Source of the DNA: Terriglobia bacterium
GTDB lineage: Bacteria; Acidobacteriota; Terriglobia; Bryobacterales; Bryobacteraceae
Direction of reading: 5' to 3'
Assembly: GCA_020073265.1 (NCBI GenBank)
Contig: JAIQFN010000005.1
Location: 76,110 to 140,109, forward strand
Length of the DNA stretch: 64,000 bases
Part shown: positions 7,431-15,630 of the stretch, in pieces
Layout of the letters: the number at the start of each line of letters is the position of its first letter
How positions within the stretch are numbered: position 1 is the stretch's first letter
Made by a program: the position numbers and the translations under genes
Notes under the pieces: generated by a model
Databases searched by the model: none
What the model saw: the letters and a program-made list of their open reading frames with translations, nothing else
Told to the model about the DNA's origin: nothing

Positions 7431-8324
7431 GTGGCCGGACTGTATCTGGAATCGCGTCTGGAGTTTCTGCGCGCGACGCAGAACGCGGACGGCGGCTGGG
7501 GATATTTTCCCGGAAAACACTCCTGGATGGAACCCACCACTTACGCGATGCTCGCGCTCCACGGCACGCCCGGTTCGGATGCCCTGCTGGATCGCGCCTG
7601 GCGCCTGGTCCGCTCCTGGCAGCTTCCGGATGGAAGCGTACGCCCCGGCGCGGGAATCGAGGGCGGCACCTGGGTGACCGCGCACGCGGTGACGCTGGCC
7701 TGCCTGCGCGGCGTTCATGATTCCAACGTGAGCCGCTCGGTGGACTGGATGCTGCATGTAGTCGGCGCGGAACACAATCCCGCCATGCGAGCGGCCTCCT
7801 ACTTCCACATGCTCAAGACCAAGCTGGACGTCTCGCACCAGGGCTGGCCCTGGCGCAACGGCAACGCGTCCTGGATCGAACCGACCGCGCACACGCTAGT
7901 GGCTCTGAAGAAGGTCTCGAAAAACTATCGCAGCGCCGAGCTGGAGCATCGCGTGCGCGAGGGCGAGGATCTGCTCTTCAGCCGCCGCTGCAGCGACGGC
8001 GGATGGAACTGCGGCAACCCCAATGTCCTGAATTTCGATCTGCCGTCTTATCCGGAGACCACCGGCGTGGCGCTGATCGGGCTGGAGGGGCGCAGCGTCC
8101 GCGAATTGGCCCAGCCGCTCGAAGTCGCGCGGCGTTTCCGCACCGAAACCAAGTCGTCGCTCGCCAAGGCCTGGCTCAGCATCGGGCTGCGCTGTCACGG
8201 AGAGAATCCGGAGCCGCCCTCGGACACGGCGCGAGTCTCGTCCGACATCATGCTGGCCGCGCTCGAAACGCTCGCGCATCCGGAAGGCAACTACCGGCTG
8301 CTCAAGACGGAGGGCCTCGCATGA
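7431..8324 (+). CDS. prenyltransferase/squalene-cyclase-repeat (alpha/alpha-toroid) protein
   Basis: GTG start. Repeated motifs NADGGWGYFPG, QLPDGSV, WPWRNGN and RCSDGGWNCGNPN. The stop overlaps the next ATG (ATGA at 8321-8324). Confidence 0.7.
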   Translation: MAGLYLESRLEFLRATQNADGGWGYFPGKHSWMEPTTYAMLALHGTPGSDALLDRAWRLVRSWQLPDGSVRPGAGIEGGTWVTAHAVTLACLRGVHDSNVSRSVDWMLHVVGAEHNPAMRAASYFHMLKTKLDVSHQGWPWRNGNASWIEPTAHTLVALKKVSKNYRSAELEHRVREGEDLLFSRRCSDGGWNCGNPNVLNFDLPSYPETTGVALIGLEGRSVRELAQPLEVARRFRTETKSSLAKAWLSIGLRCHGENPEPPSDTARVSSDIMLAALETLAHPEGNYRLLKTEGLA

Positions 8325-9286
8325 ATCGCCGGAAATTCCTGACGCTCTCGGGCGCCGCTGTCGCCGGCACCTACGCCAGCATGAAGCTGCAGAAGCCGCC
8401 GCAGATTCCCGACGGCCCGCCGGGCGATTCCGTGGTGGCGATCCTGCGCGCCCGCTCGTATTCCGACGACCTGGTGAGCCGCATGCTCGAAGGCATCCGG
8501 CAATGCGGCCTGGACGTCCGCGGCAAGCGCGTCCTGCTGAAACCCAACCTGGTGGAGTTCGACTCCGCTACCGTGATCAACACCGACGCTACCGTGATCG
8601 CGGCCGCGCTCGAAGTGTTCCAGCACCTGGGCGCCGCCGAAGTCAAGATCGGCGAAGGCCCCGGACATCGCCGCGACACCCTCGACCTGGCCGACGACGC
8701 GCGCTACCGCGCCACCATCCCGAAATTCGAGAACATCTTTACCGATCTCAACCGCGACGATGTTTCCCCCGTTTTCGATTTCGCCAACGAGTCGCGCTTC
8801 TATTTCCCCAACACGGTGCTGGGCGCCGACCTGATCGTCTCGCTCGCCAAGATGAAGACGCACCACTGGGCCGGCGCCACGCTTTCGATGAAGAACTTCT
8901 TCGGCATCGTGCCCGGCTCGCTGTACGGCTGGCCCAAAAACAAGCTGCACTATATCGGGATTCAGGAGTCGGTGGTCGCGCTCAATCGCAAATTCCGCAA
9001 CACCTTCGCGATTGTGGACGGCATCATCGGCATGGAAGGCAACGGGCCGATCCAAGGCACGCCCAAGCCCACCGGAGTGCTGGTCATGGGCCGCGACCTG
9101 GTGGCGGTGGACTCCACCTGCTGCCGCATCATGGGAATCGATCCGGAAAAAGTCGACTATCTGCGGATGGCCGCCGGTTTGGGCCACGTGCATGGCTCGC
9201 GCATCCAGCAGCGCGGCGAATCCGTCGCCAGCGTCCGAACCAACTTCGCCCTGATCGACGAATTCCAGGGCCTGCGCCTGGCATGA
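8321..9286 (+). CDS. DUF362-like protein with twin-arginine signal
   Basis: MNRRKFLTLSGAAVAG is Tat-like. VLLKPNLVEF, GEGPGHRRDT, KMKTHHWAGATLSMKNFFG and DGIIGMEGNGP resemble DUF362 (PF04015). Start taken at internal Met107 of the 8003..9286 ORF. Confidence 0.75.
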   Translation: MNRRKFLTLSGAAVAGTYASMKLQKPPQIPDGPPGDSVVAILRARSYSDDLVSRMLEGIRQCGLDVRGKRVLLKPNLVEFDSATVINTDATVIAAALEVFQHLGAAEVKIGEGPGHRRDTLDLADDARYRATIPKFENIFTDLNRDDVSPVFDFANESRFYFPNTVLGADLIVSLAKMKTHHWAGATLSMKNFFGIVPGSLYGWPKNKLHYIGIQESVVALNRKFRNTFAIVDGIIGMEGNGPIQGTPKPTGVLVMGRDLVAVDSTCCRIMGIDPEKVDYLRMAAGLGHVHGSRIQQRGESVASVRTNFALIDEFQGLRLA

Positions 9287-13934: not shown

Positions 13935-13938
13935 CGCC

Positions 13939-15630
13939 ATGCTCGAGTTCTTTCTTTACCTCATCGCCGGCGTCGGATATGGGTTCTACTTCGACCTGAA
14001 TCCGCTGGAGACCGCACTGGTCGCGCTGGTGATCCTGTGCCTGTGGCGCCGCTGGCTTCCCGCGTTTCGTTTCGAGCGCGCCTGGCGGTGGTGCATTCGT
14101 CTGGCGCAGCGACCCAGGATCGCCGTGGCCAGCGTTTTCCTGGCGGCGCTCGCGGTTCGCGCGGCGCTCCTTCCGGCATTTCCCGTTCCTGCGCCGGTGG
14201 TCACCGACGAGTTCAGCCACCTGTTGATCGCCGACACGCTGGCCCACGGCCGGCTGACCAATCCCACGCATCCGATGTGGGAGCACTTCGAGAGCATTCA
14301 CATCATCCAGCAGCCGACTTACAATTCGGACTATTTCCCCGGACAAGGAGCGCTGCTCGCCGTAGGAAAACTGCTGGGGCATCCATGGATCGCGGTGTGG
14401 CTGTCCACGGCCGCGATGTGCGCTGCGCTGTGCTGGATGCTGCAGGCCTGGGTTCCGCCGGCTTGGGCGCTTTTCGGCTCGCTGCTCGCCGTGCTGCGCT
14501 TCGGGATCGCGAGCTATTGGGTCAACGGTTACTACGGCGGATGTCTGGCGGCGATCGGAGGCGCGCTGGCGCTGGGAGCTTATCCACGCTTGCTGCGCCG
14601 GCCGGGGCTCGGGACGTCGCTGCTGTTTGGGATCGGAGTGGCGATCATCGGCTACACGCGACCGTTCGAAGGACTCGCGGTCGCAGTGCCCGCGGCGGCG
14701 GCGCTGGCGTTCGCGATACTGAGAGGACGCCCTCGCGTTTGGGTCGCCATTCCGGCGCTGGCCGTCGCAGCGGCCGGAGTCGCGGGACTCCTGGTCTACG
14801 ATCAGGCCGTCACCGGCGATCCGCTGCGAACGCCATACGCGGTGAACCAAGCCACCTACGGATGGCCGATGACGCTTCCGTGGTTCCATCCAACCGAGCC
14901 GCAGTTCCGAAACGTCGAGCTCAAACGCTACTACGACTACGAGCGCGACGTTCATGAGCGCAACTCCTCCGCCATCGACCTGCTCAAGAACAGCACGCTC
15001 AAAGCGCAGGAACTCTGGCGCTTCTACTTCGGGCCCGCGCTCTCGATCCCGCTCATCATGCTTCCCCAGGTCTGGCGGAGCCGGCGACTGCGGTTGCTTC
15101 TCGCGGCCGGCTCGCTCACGGTGCTGGCCTCGCTGATCGAGACCGGTTCGGCGCCTCACTACGCCGCCGCTGCCACGGGATGCTTTCTAGCCGTGTGCGT
15201 GGAATGTTTCCGCCGGCTGTGCAAGCGCCGTTACGGCGTTCAGCTCGCCATCGCGGCTCCTGCCATCGTGTTGCTGATCCTGGCGGTGCGAATCGGACTG
15301 GAGAAATCCCACCTGCCCTTTACGCAACGGGTGAACTACGAGTCCTGGTGCTGCGTGAAGCCTGGCAATCCGAACAAGGCGCGCATCCTTGCCATGCTGG
15401 AGCAAAACGGCGGGAGGCATCTGGTGCTGGTGAGGCCGAAGACCGATCCCGACAACGTCTTCCAGTGGATTTACAACGCCGCCGACATCGATGCATCGCC
15501 GGTGGTGTGGGCGCGCGACATGGGCGGCCAGGAAAACCAAGCGCTGCTCAAGTATTTCCACGACCGCCAGGTGTGGCTGCTCGATCCCAACGTAGAGCCG
15601 CCGCAGATCGCGCCCTTCACGCCGCCCTGA
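13939..15630 (+). CDS. polytopic membrane protein, GT-C-like (paralog of 9283..10950)
   Basis: Aligns by eye with the 9283 gene: [33 protein letters not shown] vs [33 protein letters not shown], and HLVLVRPK…VVWARDM…RQVWLLD vs HLVLVRYG…VIWARSL…RQVWLLD. Confidence 0.75.

Follow-up and report, generated by a model that had tools for sequence, protein, structure and literature searches.

TfpW is a GT-C arabinosyltransferase of the group IV type IVa pilins of Pseudomonas aeruginosa. It modifies several pilin Ser/Thr residues in the periplasm, using a polyprenyl-phosphate sugar from a UbiA-type/DprE pathway (bioRxiv 10.1101/2020.04.19.049825). Like the membrane proteins described below, it is a polytopic enzyme of the GT-C class whose loop 1 contains an acidic motif, and its gene lies directly 3' of the major pilin gene. 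TfpO/PilO and PglL are its functional analogues.

The PMT (GT39) and ArnT (GT83) enzymes are similar in having a GT-C_A type fold and a first extracytoplasmic loop with an Asp-Glu or other acidic motif. Their donor is a polyprenyl-phosphate monosaccharide made by a GT2 enzyme (Ppm1, Dpm1 or ArnC). A third point of comparison is the set of mycobacterial assembly lines, in which several GT-C enzymes act in series (PimE/GT87, AftA-D, EmbA-C) alongside a UbiA DPPR synthase and DprE1/E2. Among Tad pilins, glycosylation has been reported for Flp1 of A. actinomycetemcomitans (PMC6182317); the literature we searched names no modifying enzyme for it. Because the Caulobacter Tad pilus has no glycan density (PMC10710030), glycosylation is not a general feature of Tad pilins.

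The locus and its three GT-C-like membrane proteins

The locus occupies positions 7431-15630 of a 64,000-nucleotide stretch of DNA (the window) from a soil acidobacterium. Seven adjacent genes can be read from the sequence, six of them on the + strand, and gene calling done independently on the source contig recovers the same set. The gene order, overlaps, motifs and domains given in the initial annotation were all borne out by the sequence and these calls. Direct reading places ATGA overlaps between g1 and g2 (8321-8324) and between g2 and g3 (9283-9286) and a spacer of 4 nt between g6 and g7 (13935-13938). The one gene on the − strand, g5, points toward flp and away from g6, from which it is separated by 34 nt.

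Three of the products are polytopic membrane proteins: g3 (9283-10950, +, 555 aa), g6 (12648-13934, +, 428 aa, with a TTG start) and g7 (13939-15630, +, 563 aa). Confident AlphaFold models were obtained for g3 (pLDDT 82, pTM 0.84) and g6 (pLDDT 90.6, pTM 0.91), and the best Foldseek matches of both are GT-C enzymes. The g3 model matched ALG12, ArnT, STT3, PglB, AglB, Pmt4, AftA and EmbB (probability 1.00, TM-scores 0.44-0.51 normalised to query length), and the g6 model matched STT3, PglB, AglB and ArnT (probability 1.00, TM-scores 0.45-0.59 on the same normalisation). A GT-C fold is thus predicted for both from the models and is assigned to g7 through its paralogy with g3 (36% identity, E 2e-75), as had been proposed for all three. 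No profile-level sequence similarity links g3 to g6, or either of them to any Pfam GT-C model, and neither g3 nor g7 matches a Pfam or NCBIfam model or a PDB sequence. Because of this, the GT-C assignment of g3 and g7 is one of predicted structure at a moderate TM-score of ~0.5.

The acidic first-loop motif that the initial annotation had pointed out in each membrane protein is present just past the first transmembrane helix (DEFSYLL at residues 65-71 of g3, DEFSHLL in g7, LEDDYPN at residues 34-40 of g6) and is conserved across family members. In the g3/g7 family, which comprises ~2,800 clusters at 50% identity (E<=1e-30), D65 is found in 99/102 members and E/D66 in 102/102, as are R217 and Y391 (g3 numbering). 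A small beta domain forms the C-terminus of g3. The E35/D36/D37 of g6 are nearly invariant among its homologs.

Though g6 scores below the cut-off for Pfam PMT_2 (21.3 against 26.1 bits), PF13231 is found in many homologs that are 50-77% identical to it, some of which have been given the names GT39 or ArnT family; g6 is a divergent PMT_2 (GT39/GT83-like) enzyme. It differs from PMT and ArnT in lacking MIR or large periplasmic domains, and g3 and g7 differ further in having no sequence similarity to PMT_2. Set against the published description of TfpW, g3 and g7 are without its TPR domain, and no Pfam model exists for their family. Fusion proteins were also found, of the types UbiA-GT-C and PMT_2-TPR-GT-C.

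Soluble partners

The genes g1 and g2 lie directly 5' of g3. Protein g1 (7431-8324, +, 297 aa) is a QW/DGGW-repeat protein of alpha/alpha-toroid type that passes Pfam SQHop_cyclase_C (29.4 bits, cut-off 26.1). Its PDB sequence matches to the terpene-cyclase repeat (E 2.6e-9) span residues 7-72 only. The repeats of the prenyltransferase/terpene-cyclase type reported earlier are therefore present, and the 'prenyltransferase' label describes similarity at the level of the repeat only. There is no signal peptide, and an in-frame stop lies 6 codons 5' of the start; the same is true of the orthologs.

Protein g2 (8321-9286, +, 321 aa) matches Pfam DUF362 (E 1.2e-43). It falls below the cut-off of the Pfam TAT_signal model, but its twin-arginine N-terminus (M-N-R-R-K-F-L) is kept in orthologs as M(T/N)RR(K/Q)F, in agreement with the earlier reading of a Tat-signal DUF362 protein. 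Among the products of the cluster it ranks second in conservation (mean 82.5% identity).

The gene oriented divergently from g6, g5 (11330-12613, −, 427 aa), had been described as LarA-like. Its product scores 439 bits, above the cut-off of 400, with the NCBIfam equivalog model NF052515, 'NPN-dependent isomerase group 22', which places it in the LarA superfamily of nickel-pincer-nucleotide-dependent 2-hydroxyacid racemases and epimerases. It matches Pfam Lar_N weakly, has no signal peptide, and has no PDB sequence match to solved LarA structures, profile search included. The part of the window that was annotated contains no larB/C/E gene. The DUF362 and LarA N-terminal domains belong to the same Pfam clan, CL0471 (PMC11770544). 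In a departure from the LarA superfamily, the Tat-type signal of g2 would put a LarA-clan protein in the periplasm. The LarA study we consulted describes no characterised homolog from a glycosylation cluster.

All three soluble proteins are specific to the form that the cluster takes in Bryobacterales, where g1 directly precedes g2-g3 at every locus and g5 adjoins flp in >20 loci. In some variant sister loci, g5 is the last gene of an operon that runs GT2-methyltransferase, NAD-dependent epimerase/dehydratase, g5. The TfpW system has no counterpart of the toroid, Tat-DUF362 or LarA-like genes.

The Flp prepilin and its linkage to GT-C genes

The remaining gene, flp (11063-11260, +), encodes a Flp-type prepilin of 65 aa. 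It scores 27.2 bits with Pfam Flp_Fap, under the cut-off of 32.2, and 127 bits with its own HMM. The processing motif is canonical (G|QDLIEYAL, after a leader ending in ...DTRG) and common to flp genes within Tad loci. The mature peptide has 46 aa, QDLIEYALMAGF...SSSISTIFSKISSVMSVAASQS, of which 11 are Ser/Thr. The pilin is thus of the Flp/Tad (type IVc) class, where the TfpW substrate is type IVa.

The region upstream of flp (10951-11062, + strand) contains invariant blocks in a nucleotide alignment of 18 Bryobacterales loci, a short hairpin (GCGATGG-CGAAA-CCATCGC) with one compensatory change in the same alignment, and a strong ribosome-binding site (GGAGAGGAG). It matched no Rfam family and probably supplies flp with a promoter and leader of its own. 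Many loci carry another flp, which is more variable, ~1 kb 5' of g1.

As had been noted, flp is an orphan within the window. No Tad gene was annotated by Pfam from just upstream of the window start to ~56,600, and protein queries for the secretin, RcpC and TadG found nothing anywhere in the window; over its last ~7.4 kb the search consisted of these three queries, which do not include the TadA ATPase or TadB/C. GT2, UbiA and GT87 genes are likewise absent from the window, so both pilus assembly and donor synthesis must be encoded elsewhere.

One reading of this separation is that the Bryobacterales Flp-like peptide is no pilus subunit at all and serves g1-g2-g3 as a small membrane-anchored partner, whether primer, scaffold or regulator. 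Besides its orphan status, the peptide's gene is preceded by a strongly conserved region of its own, the more variable second flp accompanies it in many loci, and no other product of the cluster is as well conserved (mean 88% identity, compared with 61% for g3), a level that would be unusual for an exposed major pilin. The prepilin processing motif and length are nevertheless fully kept, and the HMM groups this flp with those of true Tad loci. Tad loci are also often split, with pilin genes far from the machinery. On balance we regard a partner peptide as improbable.

The cluster was found again in ~20 further Bryobacterales species-level genomes, and flp is present in 19/19 further loci carrying g1/g2. 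The full seven-gene order is limited to the closest relatives (L004, L007, L025), and other Bryobacterales loci have other genes in place of g6 and g7, as might be seen if unrelated neighbours had simply been kept by the recent common descent of close genomes. However, the core g1-g2-g3-(GT87)-flp-g5 is maintained while its flanking genes change completely, conservation extends to the overlaps between start and stop codons, and flp is linked to the same GT-C family independently in Terriglobales, which is another taxonomic order, and in a different gene context there. The comparative data already argue against adjacency without functional meaning, and we consider it very improbable. The neighbourhood conservation and the non-accidental placement of flp that the initial annotation depended on have both held up.

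In Terriglobales, a g7-like gene is found within complete Tad loci, directly after a run of 1-5 flp genes in tandem. These copies match the g7-type HMM best, and g7 is of the subtype that lies directly 3' of flp arrays there. By Pfam, these loci include T2SSF, TadE, TadG, RcpC, secretin, DUF192, GT87, flp x2-5, g7-like GT-C and GT2. The placement of the GT-C gene after flp resembles the pilA-tfpW and pilA-tfpO arrangements, where the gene for the modifying enzyme follows that of the pilin (bioRxiv 10.1101/2020.04.19.049825), and the flp-GT-C-GT2 order, together with the UbiA fusions, parallels the TfpW system. One further locus runs flp-flp-g7like-PMT_2-unknown, with GT2 and UbiA coming next on the other strand. 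Across the 81 loci, GT2 is present in 33/81 and GT87 genes are adjacent in 33/81.

Possible glycosylation of Flp or of another envelope component

The product of the GT-C enzymes might instead be an envelope glycan that is not attached to protein (lipoglycan, exopolysaccharide or holdfast-like adhesin, or decoration of LPS/lipid A). For the sake of adhesion it would be regulated together with Tad pili or located with them, and its acceptor would be something other than Flp. Several GT-C families share a locus (g3/g7 type, GT87, PMT_2), where the TfpW system has one such enzyme, and this recalls the mycobacterial arabinan and mannan lines. Adjacent GT87 genes, the UbiA gene and fusions, and AftA and EmbB among the structural matches extend the likeness, as does an epimerisation step, implied here by the LarA-like and NAD-epimerase genes; ArnT and AftA/Emb act on lipids and polysaccharides. 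Tandem arrays of 4-6 g3/g7-family members occur in some genomes with no flp (L042, L055). Of the non-Bryobacterales loci of the family, 43/62 have one or more of flp, GT87, GT2 and Tad machinery, yet flp lies within 10 kb in 19/62, about a third.

Where flp is present, its placement is tight and directional, which speaks against an envelope glycan: in 15/19 of these loci it is <1 kb away, directly upstream and on the same strand, against ~2.5% expected for random placement within the flanks. Terriglobales place the GT-C, GT87 and GT2 genes between flp and the remaining Tad genes, Bryobacterales keep flp in the cluster though the pilus machinery is not nearby, and the annotated loci contain no Wzx/Wzy/Wza-type export genes. 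The annotated loci also show no DprE1/DprE2 homologs. The setting differs from the mycobacterial one in being a diderm Acidobacteriota, in being linked to flp/Tad and not to cell-wall genes, and in that the proposed acceptor is a protein. We therefore view an envelope glycan as possible but rather unlikely, if the least improbable of the alternatives.

The explanation we favour, at about even confidence, is a periplasmic polyprenyl-phosphate-sugar glycosylation module that is dedicated, or at least functionally tied, to the encoded Flp pilin. The initial proposal of a periplasmic, polyprenyl-dependent system gains support from the predicted GT-C folds, and the adjacent GT2/UbiA genes and UbiA-GT-C fusions point indirectly to a polyprenyl-phosphate donor. 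Counting against the module, flp in the window has its own conserved upstream region and no translational coupling to any GT-C gene.

In the mechanism we infer, with Flp as acceptor and with a proposed sugar, donor, enzymatic activity and order of action, the prepilin would be inserted in the inner membrane by its hydrophobic N-terminal helix, leaving the Ser/Thr-rich C-terminal ~20 residues on the periplasmic side. The loop-1 acidic motifs of g6, g3 and g7 would direct sugar from polyprenyl-phosphate carriers to Flp Ser/Thr, and the glycan would then be extended, each GT-C enzyme making one linkage, all before a Tad machine whose genes lie elsewhere in the genome polymerises Flp. Lipid-linked donors would come from GT2 (ArnC/Dpm1-like) or UbiA-type enzymes, which are neighbours of the module in relatives and lie outside the window here. 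Every role for the soluble proteins is likewise putative: cytoplasmic g5 would probably epimerise a donor precursor, either a hydroxy acid or a sugar acid, and g1 and g2, which are translationally coupled, would be accessory to the g3 subtype specifically and may leave the cytoplasm together as a folded, cofactor-bearing complex.

Given that flp is near only ~1/3 of non-Bryobacterales loci and that flp-less arrays exist, the g3/g7 family is not restricted to pilins and may have other glycans as products. We found no description of such a system in the literature searched, and the cluster is probably an undescribed system for sugar-coating Tad pili.

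Gene content of the cluster and its surroundings

The seven adjacent genes of the initial annotation, at 7431–15630, were borne out by an ORF listing and by direct reading of the sequence, and the identical seven gene models are on record for the source contig (141 kb, from an Acidobacteriia MAG with locus tags LAP38_...). On the forward strand are g1, encoding a toroid-type protein (7431–8324, 297 aa); g2, a Tat-DUF362 protein (8321–9286, 321 aa); the membrane protein gene g3 (9283–10950, 555 aa); flp, a Flp-type prepilin gene (11063–11260, 65 aa); g6, encoding a PMT_2-like membrane protein (12648–13934, 428 aa, TTG start); and g7, a membrane protein gene paralogous to g3 (13939–15630, 563 aa). 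Only g5, for a LarA-like protein, lies on the reverse strand (11330–12613, 427 aa). The ATGA overlaps at 8321–8324 and 9283–9286 and the 4-nt gap before g7 can all be read in the sequence; g1 and g2 are translationally coupled to g3. The flp gene follows g3 after 112 nt, and the oppositely oriented g5 stands between it and g6/g7.

The divergent starts of g5 (12613, −) and g6 (12648, TTG, +) are just 34 nt apart (12614–12647). Either both promoters extend into coding sequence, or the true start codons differ from those annotated. A 9-bp stem-loop at 12602–12625 overlaps the g5 start. An Rfam scan of 6800–16000 gave nothing credible, and promoter and terminator consensus scans did not rise above shuffled expectation.

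As first described, flp appears to be alone in the window. No Tad machinery, neither Tad assembly genes nor a TadV/CpaA prepilin peptidase, turned up in the Pfam annotation, which runs from shortly before the window start to ~56,600, and protein queries across all 64 kb found no homologs of the secretin, RcpC, or TadG. Homologs of GT2, GT87, UbiA, and NAD-epimerase were likewise looked for in the window and not found.

The cluster is flanked by genes for an 889-aa Ser/Thr kinase fused to Tricorn/PD40 beta-propellers (4159–6828, −) and for a 1151-aa FG-GAP_2/TIG repeat protein (15741–19196, +), neither of which is kept beside it in other genomes (loci L004 and L006 differ). A gene with an MJ0711_N domain (PF27233; 2285–3379) precedes the cluster in the window, L004, and L006. 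It was considered as a cluster member and rejected: since it is not conserved in the other Bryobacterales loci, we take it as probably plain synteny among close relatives. Elsewhere in the window, an apparent operon (27631–31267, −) is headed by a gene for a 556-aa protein lacking a Pfam match (29597–31267) and also holds genes for a 397-aa beta-propeller protein and a prolipoprotein diacylglyceryl transferase (LGT). The ORF at 50839–52500 has no exact gene product on record.

Predicted folds and families of the cluster proteins

The three membrane proteins had been called GT-C-like from acidic motifs in their first loops, and structure prediction agrees. An AlphaFold model of g3, built on the g3-family alignment, reached a pLDDT of 82 and a pTM of 0.84, and the g6 model a pLDDT of 90.6. 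In Foldseek searches of the PDB, the top 18 matches for g3 and the top 28 for g6 were all GT-C enzymes (probability 0.99–1.00). The g3 model matched ALG12, ArnT, STT3, PglB, AglB, Pmt4, AftA, and EmbB with query-length-normalized TM-scores of 0.44–0.51 against GT-C enzymes, and the g6 model matched STT3, PglB, AglB, and ArnT at 0.45–0.59 (same normalization). We assigned g7 to the superfamily through its sequence homology to g3 (36% identity, E 2e-75).

The acidic motifs are also present and conserved. The 102 g3-family members compared represent many species; D65 of the DEFS motif occurs in 99 of them, position 66 is E or D in all 102, and E93, R217, and Y391 are invariant. The D65–E66 motif sits 9–12 residues after TM1, on the opposite side of the membrane from the N-terminal RRK, and its predicted location is periplasmic loop 1. 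In g6, the E35-D36-D37 motif is at least 90% conserved. Because of the predicted folds and this motif conservation, g3, g6, and g7 are best described as GT-C enzymes, and we consider it very probable that they are lipid-linked-sugar-dependent glycosyltransferases.

Sequence searches place g6 and the g3/g7 pair separately. PMT_2 (PF13231) scores 21.3 bits on g6, below the gathering threshold of 26.1, and is precomputed on many g6 homologs of 50–77% identity, some of which carry GT39 or ArnT family names; by sequence, g6 is better regarded as divergently related to PMT_2/GT39–GT83 than as a confirmed member. Neither g3 nor g7 has a Pfam or NCBIfam match, a Pfam scan of 44 aligned g3-family members returned noise only, and a weak precomputed match to PF11992 (TgpA_N) on some Terriglobales members was taken as a transmembrane-region artefact. 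PDB sequence searches with g3 and g6 gave no match, and comparing the g3-family and g6-family profiles (probability 0.9%) detected no sequence relationship. The g3 family is large. Over 4,000 proteins scored in a word-indexed search, all ‘hypothetical’ and devoid of Pfam domains. With HMMER run exhaustively against 1.84 billion representatives, 7,806 clusters (50% identity) passed E ≤ 1e-3 and 2,805 passed E ≤ 1e-30. Cluster-member look-ups returned solely ‘hypothetical protein’ entries from MAGs and no cultured strain. On the modeled fold, g3 and g7 are best described as founding a GT-C family for which there is no model.

Of the soluble partners, g5 is the most firmly classified. It clears the 400-bit cut-off of the NCBIfam equivalog NF052515 (‘nickel pincer cofactor-dependent isomerase, group 22’) with 439.1 bits over model positions 1–391 of 392, in agreement with its first description as LarA-like. 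PDB searches with the g5 sequence and profile gave no match and no alignment to a solved LarA, and the annotated part of the window holds no larBCE-type Pfam matches. The description of g2 as a DUF362-like protein with a Tat signal also stands: DUF362 matches at E 1e-43 (Pfam), and the N-terminus (M-N-R-R-K-F-L-T-L-S-G-A-A-V-A-G-T-Y-A) has a twin arginine, conserved in every ortholog inspected, and a hydrophobic stretch. Export of g2 counts as predicted, since the Pfam TAT_signal model scores just 14.2 bits against a cut-off of 22.7. A PDB sequence search with g2 found no match. A profile comparison of g2 and g5, made with shallow alignments, found nothing; their relationship rests solely on the statement that DUF362 and the LarA N-terminal domain belong to one Pfam clan (PMC11770544). 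For g1, proposed to be a toroid of prenyltransferase/terpene-cyclase type, the DGGW repeats are there, and the match is at repeat level only: SQHop_cyclase_C scores 29.4 bits over the QW/DGGW repeats with no single stretch passing alone, and PDB sequence matches (E 2.6e-9) are confined to residues 7–72. None of the g1 orthologs inspected has a signal peptide. What this toroid/Tat-DUF362/LarA trio does is the most unusual aspect of the module and the least well explained.

Linkage to flp across Acidobacteriota

We fetched 80 species-representative genome loci carrying the g3/g7 family and annotated them with HMMs from the window proteins and Pfam-verified neighbors. In Bryobacterales, the order of the window, the core g1-g2-g3-(GT87)-flp-g5 is kept in ~20 species with differing flanking genes, so the neighborhood is conserved beyond this genome. 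The window-type variant, which adds g6-g7, also occurs in L004, L007, and L025. In the other variant a GT87 gene lies between g3 and flp, and g5 closes an operon that also encodes a GT2-methyltransferase fusion and an NAD-dependent sugar epimerase/dehydratase; upstream are a GNAT gene and another flp. A second flp, more variable and on the opposite strand, is present ~1 kb upstream of g1 in many Bryobacterales loci; the window does not have it.

Terriglobales and other Acidobacteriota loci lack g1, g2, and g5. There, a g7-type gene lies directly 3′ of one to five tandem flp genes in 15/19 of the flp-bearing non-Bryobacterales loci. The Terriglobales context is that of complete Tad loci by Pfam, with T2SSF, TadE, TadG, RcpC, secretin, DUF192, GT87, multiple flp, GT-C, and GT2 genes. 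The DUF192 gene (PF02643) recurs with the Tad secretin gene on one side and the GT87/flp genes on the other (L047:6772–7299, L088:7226–7696, and thirteen other loci).

We weighed whether flp might be next to these genes without functional meaning. All nineteen further loci carrying g1/g2 have flp, and the linkage is seen independently in two orders, including the Terriglobales Tad loci; the adjacency is thus not accidental, and we regard a meaningless arrangement as highly improbable.

The family's other neighbors bear on its substrates. GT2 genes are adjacent in 33/81 loci, and one locus (L057:849–7652) has flp-flp-g7like-PMT_2 and a gene for a 503-aa unknown on one strand with GT2 and UbiA on the other. 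Fusions occur as UbiA+GT-C (854 aa, P0370), PMT_2+TPR+GT-C (1157 aa), and TPR+GT-C, with examples among representative proteins P0370, P0394, P0378, and P0449. By sequence, the g3/g7-family enzymes sit beside genes predicted to make polyprenyl-phosphate sugars. From the GT2 genes, the UbiA of L057, and the P0370 fusion, we infer that the donors of the three GT-C enzymes would be polyprenyl-phosphate-linked sugars.

Not every family member is found near a pilin gene. L042 and L055 (also L068, L073, and L081) carry tandem arrays of three to six g7-like genes with no flp within 10 kb, some accompanied by GT87 and GT2. These arrays suggest that the g3/g7 family probably has roles beyond pilins as well. 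They also lend some weight to a rival explanation, that the enzymes make a non-protein envelope glycan co-regulated with Tad pili, as does the presence of flp in just about one-third of non-Bryobacterales loci. How tightly the GT-C genes follow flp, and the lack of polysaccharide export genes in the annotated loci, argue against an envelope glycan, which we judge rather unlikely, though the most serious of the alternatives.

The window's flp product scores 27.2 bits with Pfam Flp_Fap (E 3.3e-6), below the cut-off of 32.2, and has the features of a Flp/Fap prepilin. Its leader ends in ...DTRG, the processing site G|QDLIEYAL is canonical, and this motif is common to seventy flp ORFs, some inside Tad loci. 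The mature peptide starts QDLIEYALMAGF... and has 11 Ser/Thr among its 46 residues. Among the orthologs in L004–L030, Flp has the highest mean identity to the window copy (88%, followed by g2 at 82.5%, g5 at 75%, g1 at 70%, and g3 at 61%), and for an exposed major pilin to be the best-conserved product of its cluster is unusual. The ~110 nt 5′ of flp (10951–11062) are conserved at the nucleotide level across eighteen Bryobacterales loci, with the invariant blocks GTTCTAGG, CTGATTT, CGTACCG, and GTGATA. A short hairpin (GCGATGG-loop-CCATCGC), with one compensatory change in L011 (GCGAAGG/CCTTCGC), immediately precedes a strong flp ribosome-binding site (GGAGAGGAG). The region matched no Rfam family; it probably serves flp as its own promoter and mRNA leader.

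The orphan state of flp, the conservation of Flp relative to g3, and the conserved leader would each fit a cluster-internal Flp that is a membrane partner of the enzymes and not a pilus subunit. That Flp retains all prepilin hallmarks speaks against such a role, and we hold it to be improbable.

A candidate pilin glycosylation system

Fold prediction and comparative genomics support the glycosylation module proposed in the initial annotation. In the model we prefer, Flp would be inserted in the inner membrane and expose its Ser/Thr-rich C-terminal ~20 residues to the periplasm, where the GT-C enzymes would move sugars from polyprenyl-phosphate carriers onto Flp Ser/Thr residues and then extend them; a Tad machine encoded elsewhere would assemble the glycosylated pilin. 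That Flp is the acceptor of the g3, g6, and g7 glycosyltransferases is, in our estimate, an evenly balanced proposition. The cytoplasmic LarA-superfamily isomerase g5 would probably supply an epimerized precursor, a role suggested by its operon partners in the sister loci and by the superfamily's chemistry, C2 epimerization of 2-hydroxy acids, sugar acids among them (PMC11770544). The model is at its weakest for g1-g2, which we reasonably guess to be a folded, cofactor-loaded periplasmic accessory, with g1 possibly co-exported.

A more ambitious reading joins these parts. The g3/g7 proteins would be an unrecognized GT-C family that glycosylates Tad/Flp pilins, and in Bryobacterales a Tat-exported DUF362 protein of the LarA clan and a co-exported QW-repeat toroid would handle the polyprenyl-linked sugar in the periplasm, for example by a one-enzyme epimerization analogous to DprE1/DprE2. 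We think this combination unlikely as a whole. Were it true, it would be the first described enzymatic Tad/Flp pilin glycosylation, and DUF362 would gain its first function.

Among the closest known systems are TfpW, the GT-C enzyme of type IVa pilin arabinosylation; PMT/ArnT-type GT-C enzymes with their GT2 donor synthases; and the mycobacterial GT-C assembly lines with UbiA and epimerases. In fifteen Terriglobales-type loci, though not in the window, the GT-C gene stands immediately 3′ of the pilin gene, an order that parallels pilA-tfpW and pilA-tfpO in Pseudomonas (bioRxiv 10.1101/2020.04.19.049825). Unlike these systems, the cluster involves pilins of the Flp/Tad class, a GT-C family that has no model, and several GT-C types per locus, with the toroid, Tat-DUF362, and LarA-like accessories as extras in Bryobacterales. 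In the literature we searched, which left most subscription journals outside its scope and so does not prove novelty, neither enzymatic glycosylation of Flp/Tad pilins nor the presence of GT-C genes in Tad loci is described. The sole glycosylated Flp reported in it, Flp1 of A. actinomycetemcomitans (PMC6182317), had no enzyme linked to it, and the Caulobacter Tad pilus showed no glycan density (PMC10710030). We would class the candidate system as a variation on a known phenomenon, pilin-linked GT-C glycosylation.

Tad/Flp pili are among the most widespread bacterial adhesion organelles, and their modification is barely understood. Type IVa pilin glycans block pilus-specific phages and alter surface properties, and Acidobacteriota are a dominant soil phylum. 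A large unannotated family with a predicted GT-C fold, embedded in Tad loci, is noteworthy to specialists and directly testable; its ~7,800 clusters and their GT87, PMT_2-like, and GT2 partners in Acidobacteriota Tad loci are candidates for such tests. The group-22 LarA-like isomerase and DUF362 gain a genomic context, that of putative glycoconjugate synthesis. A comparable glycan system on Tad pili could influence biofilm formation, aggregation, and phage–host dynamics in soil.
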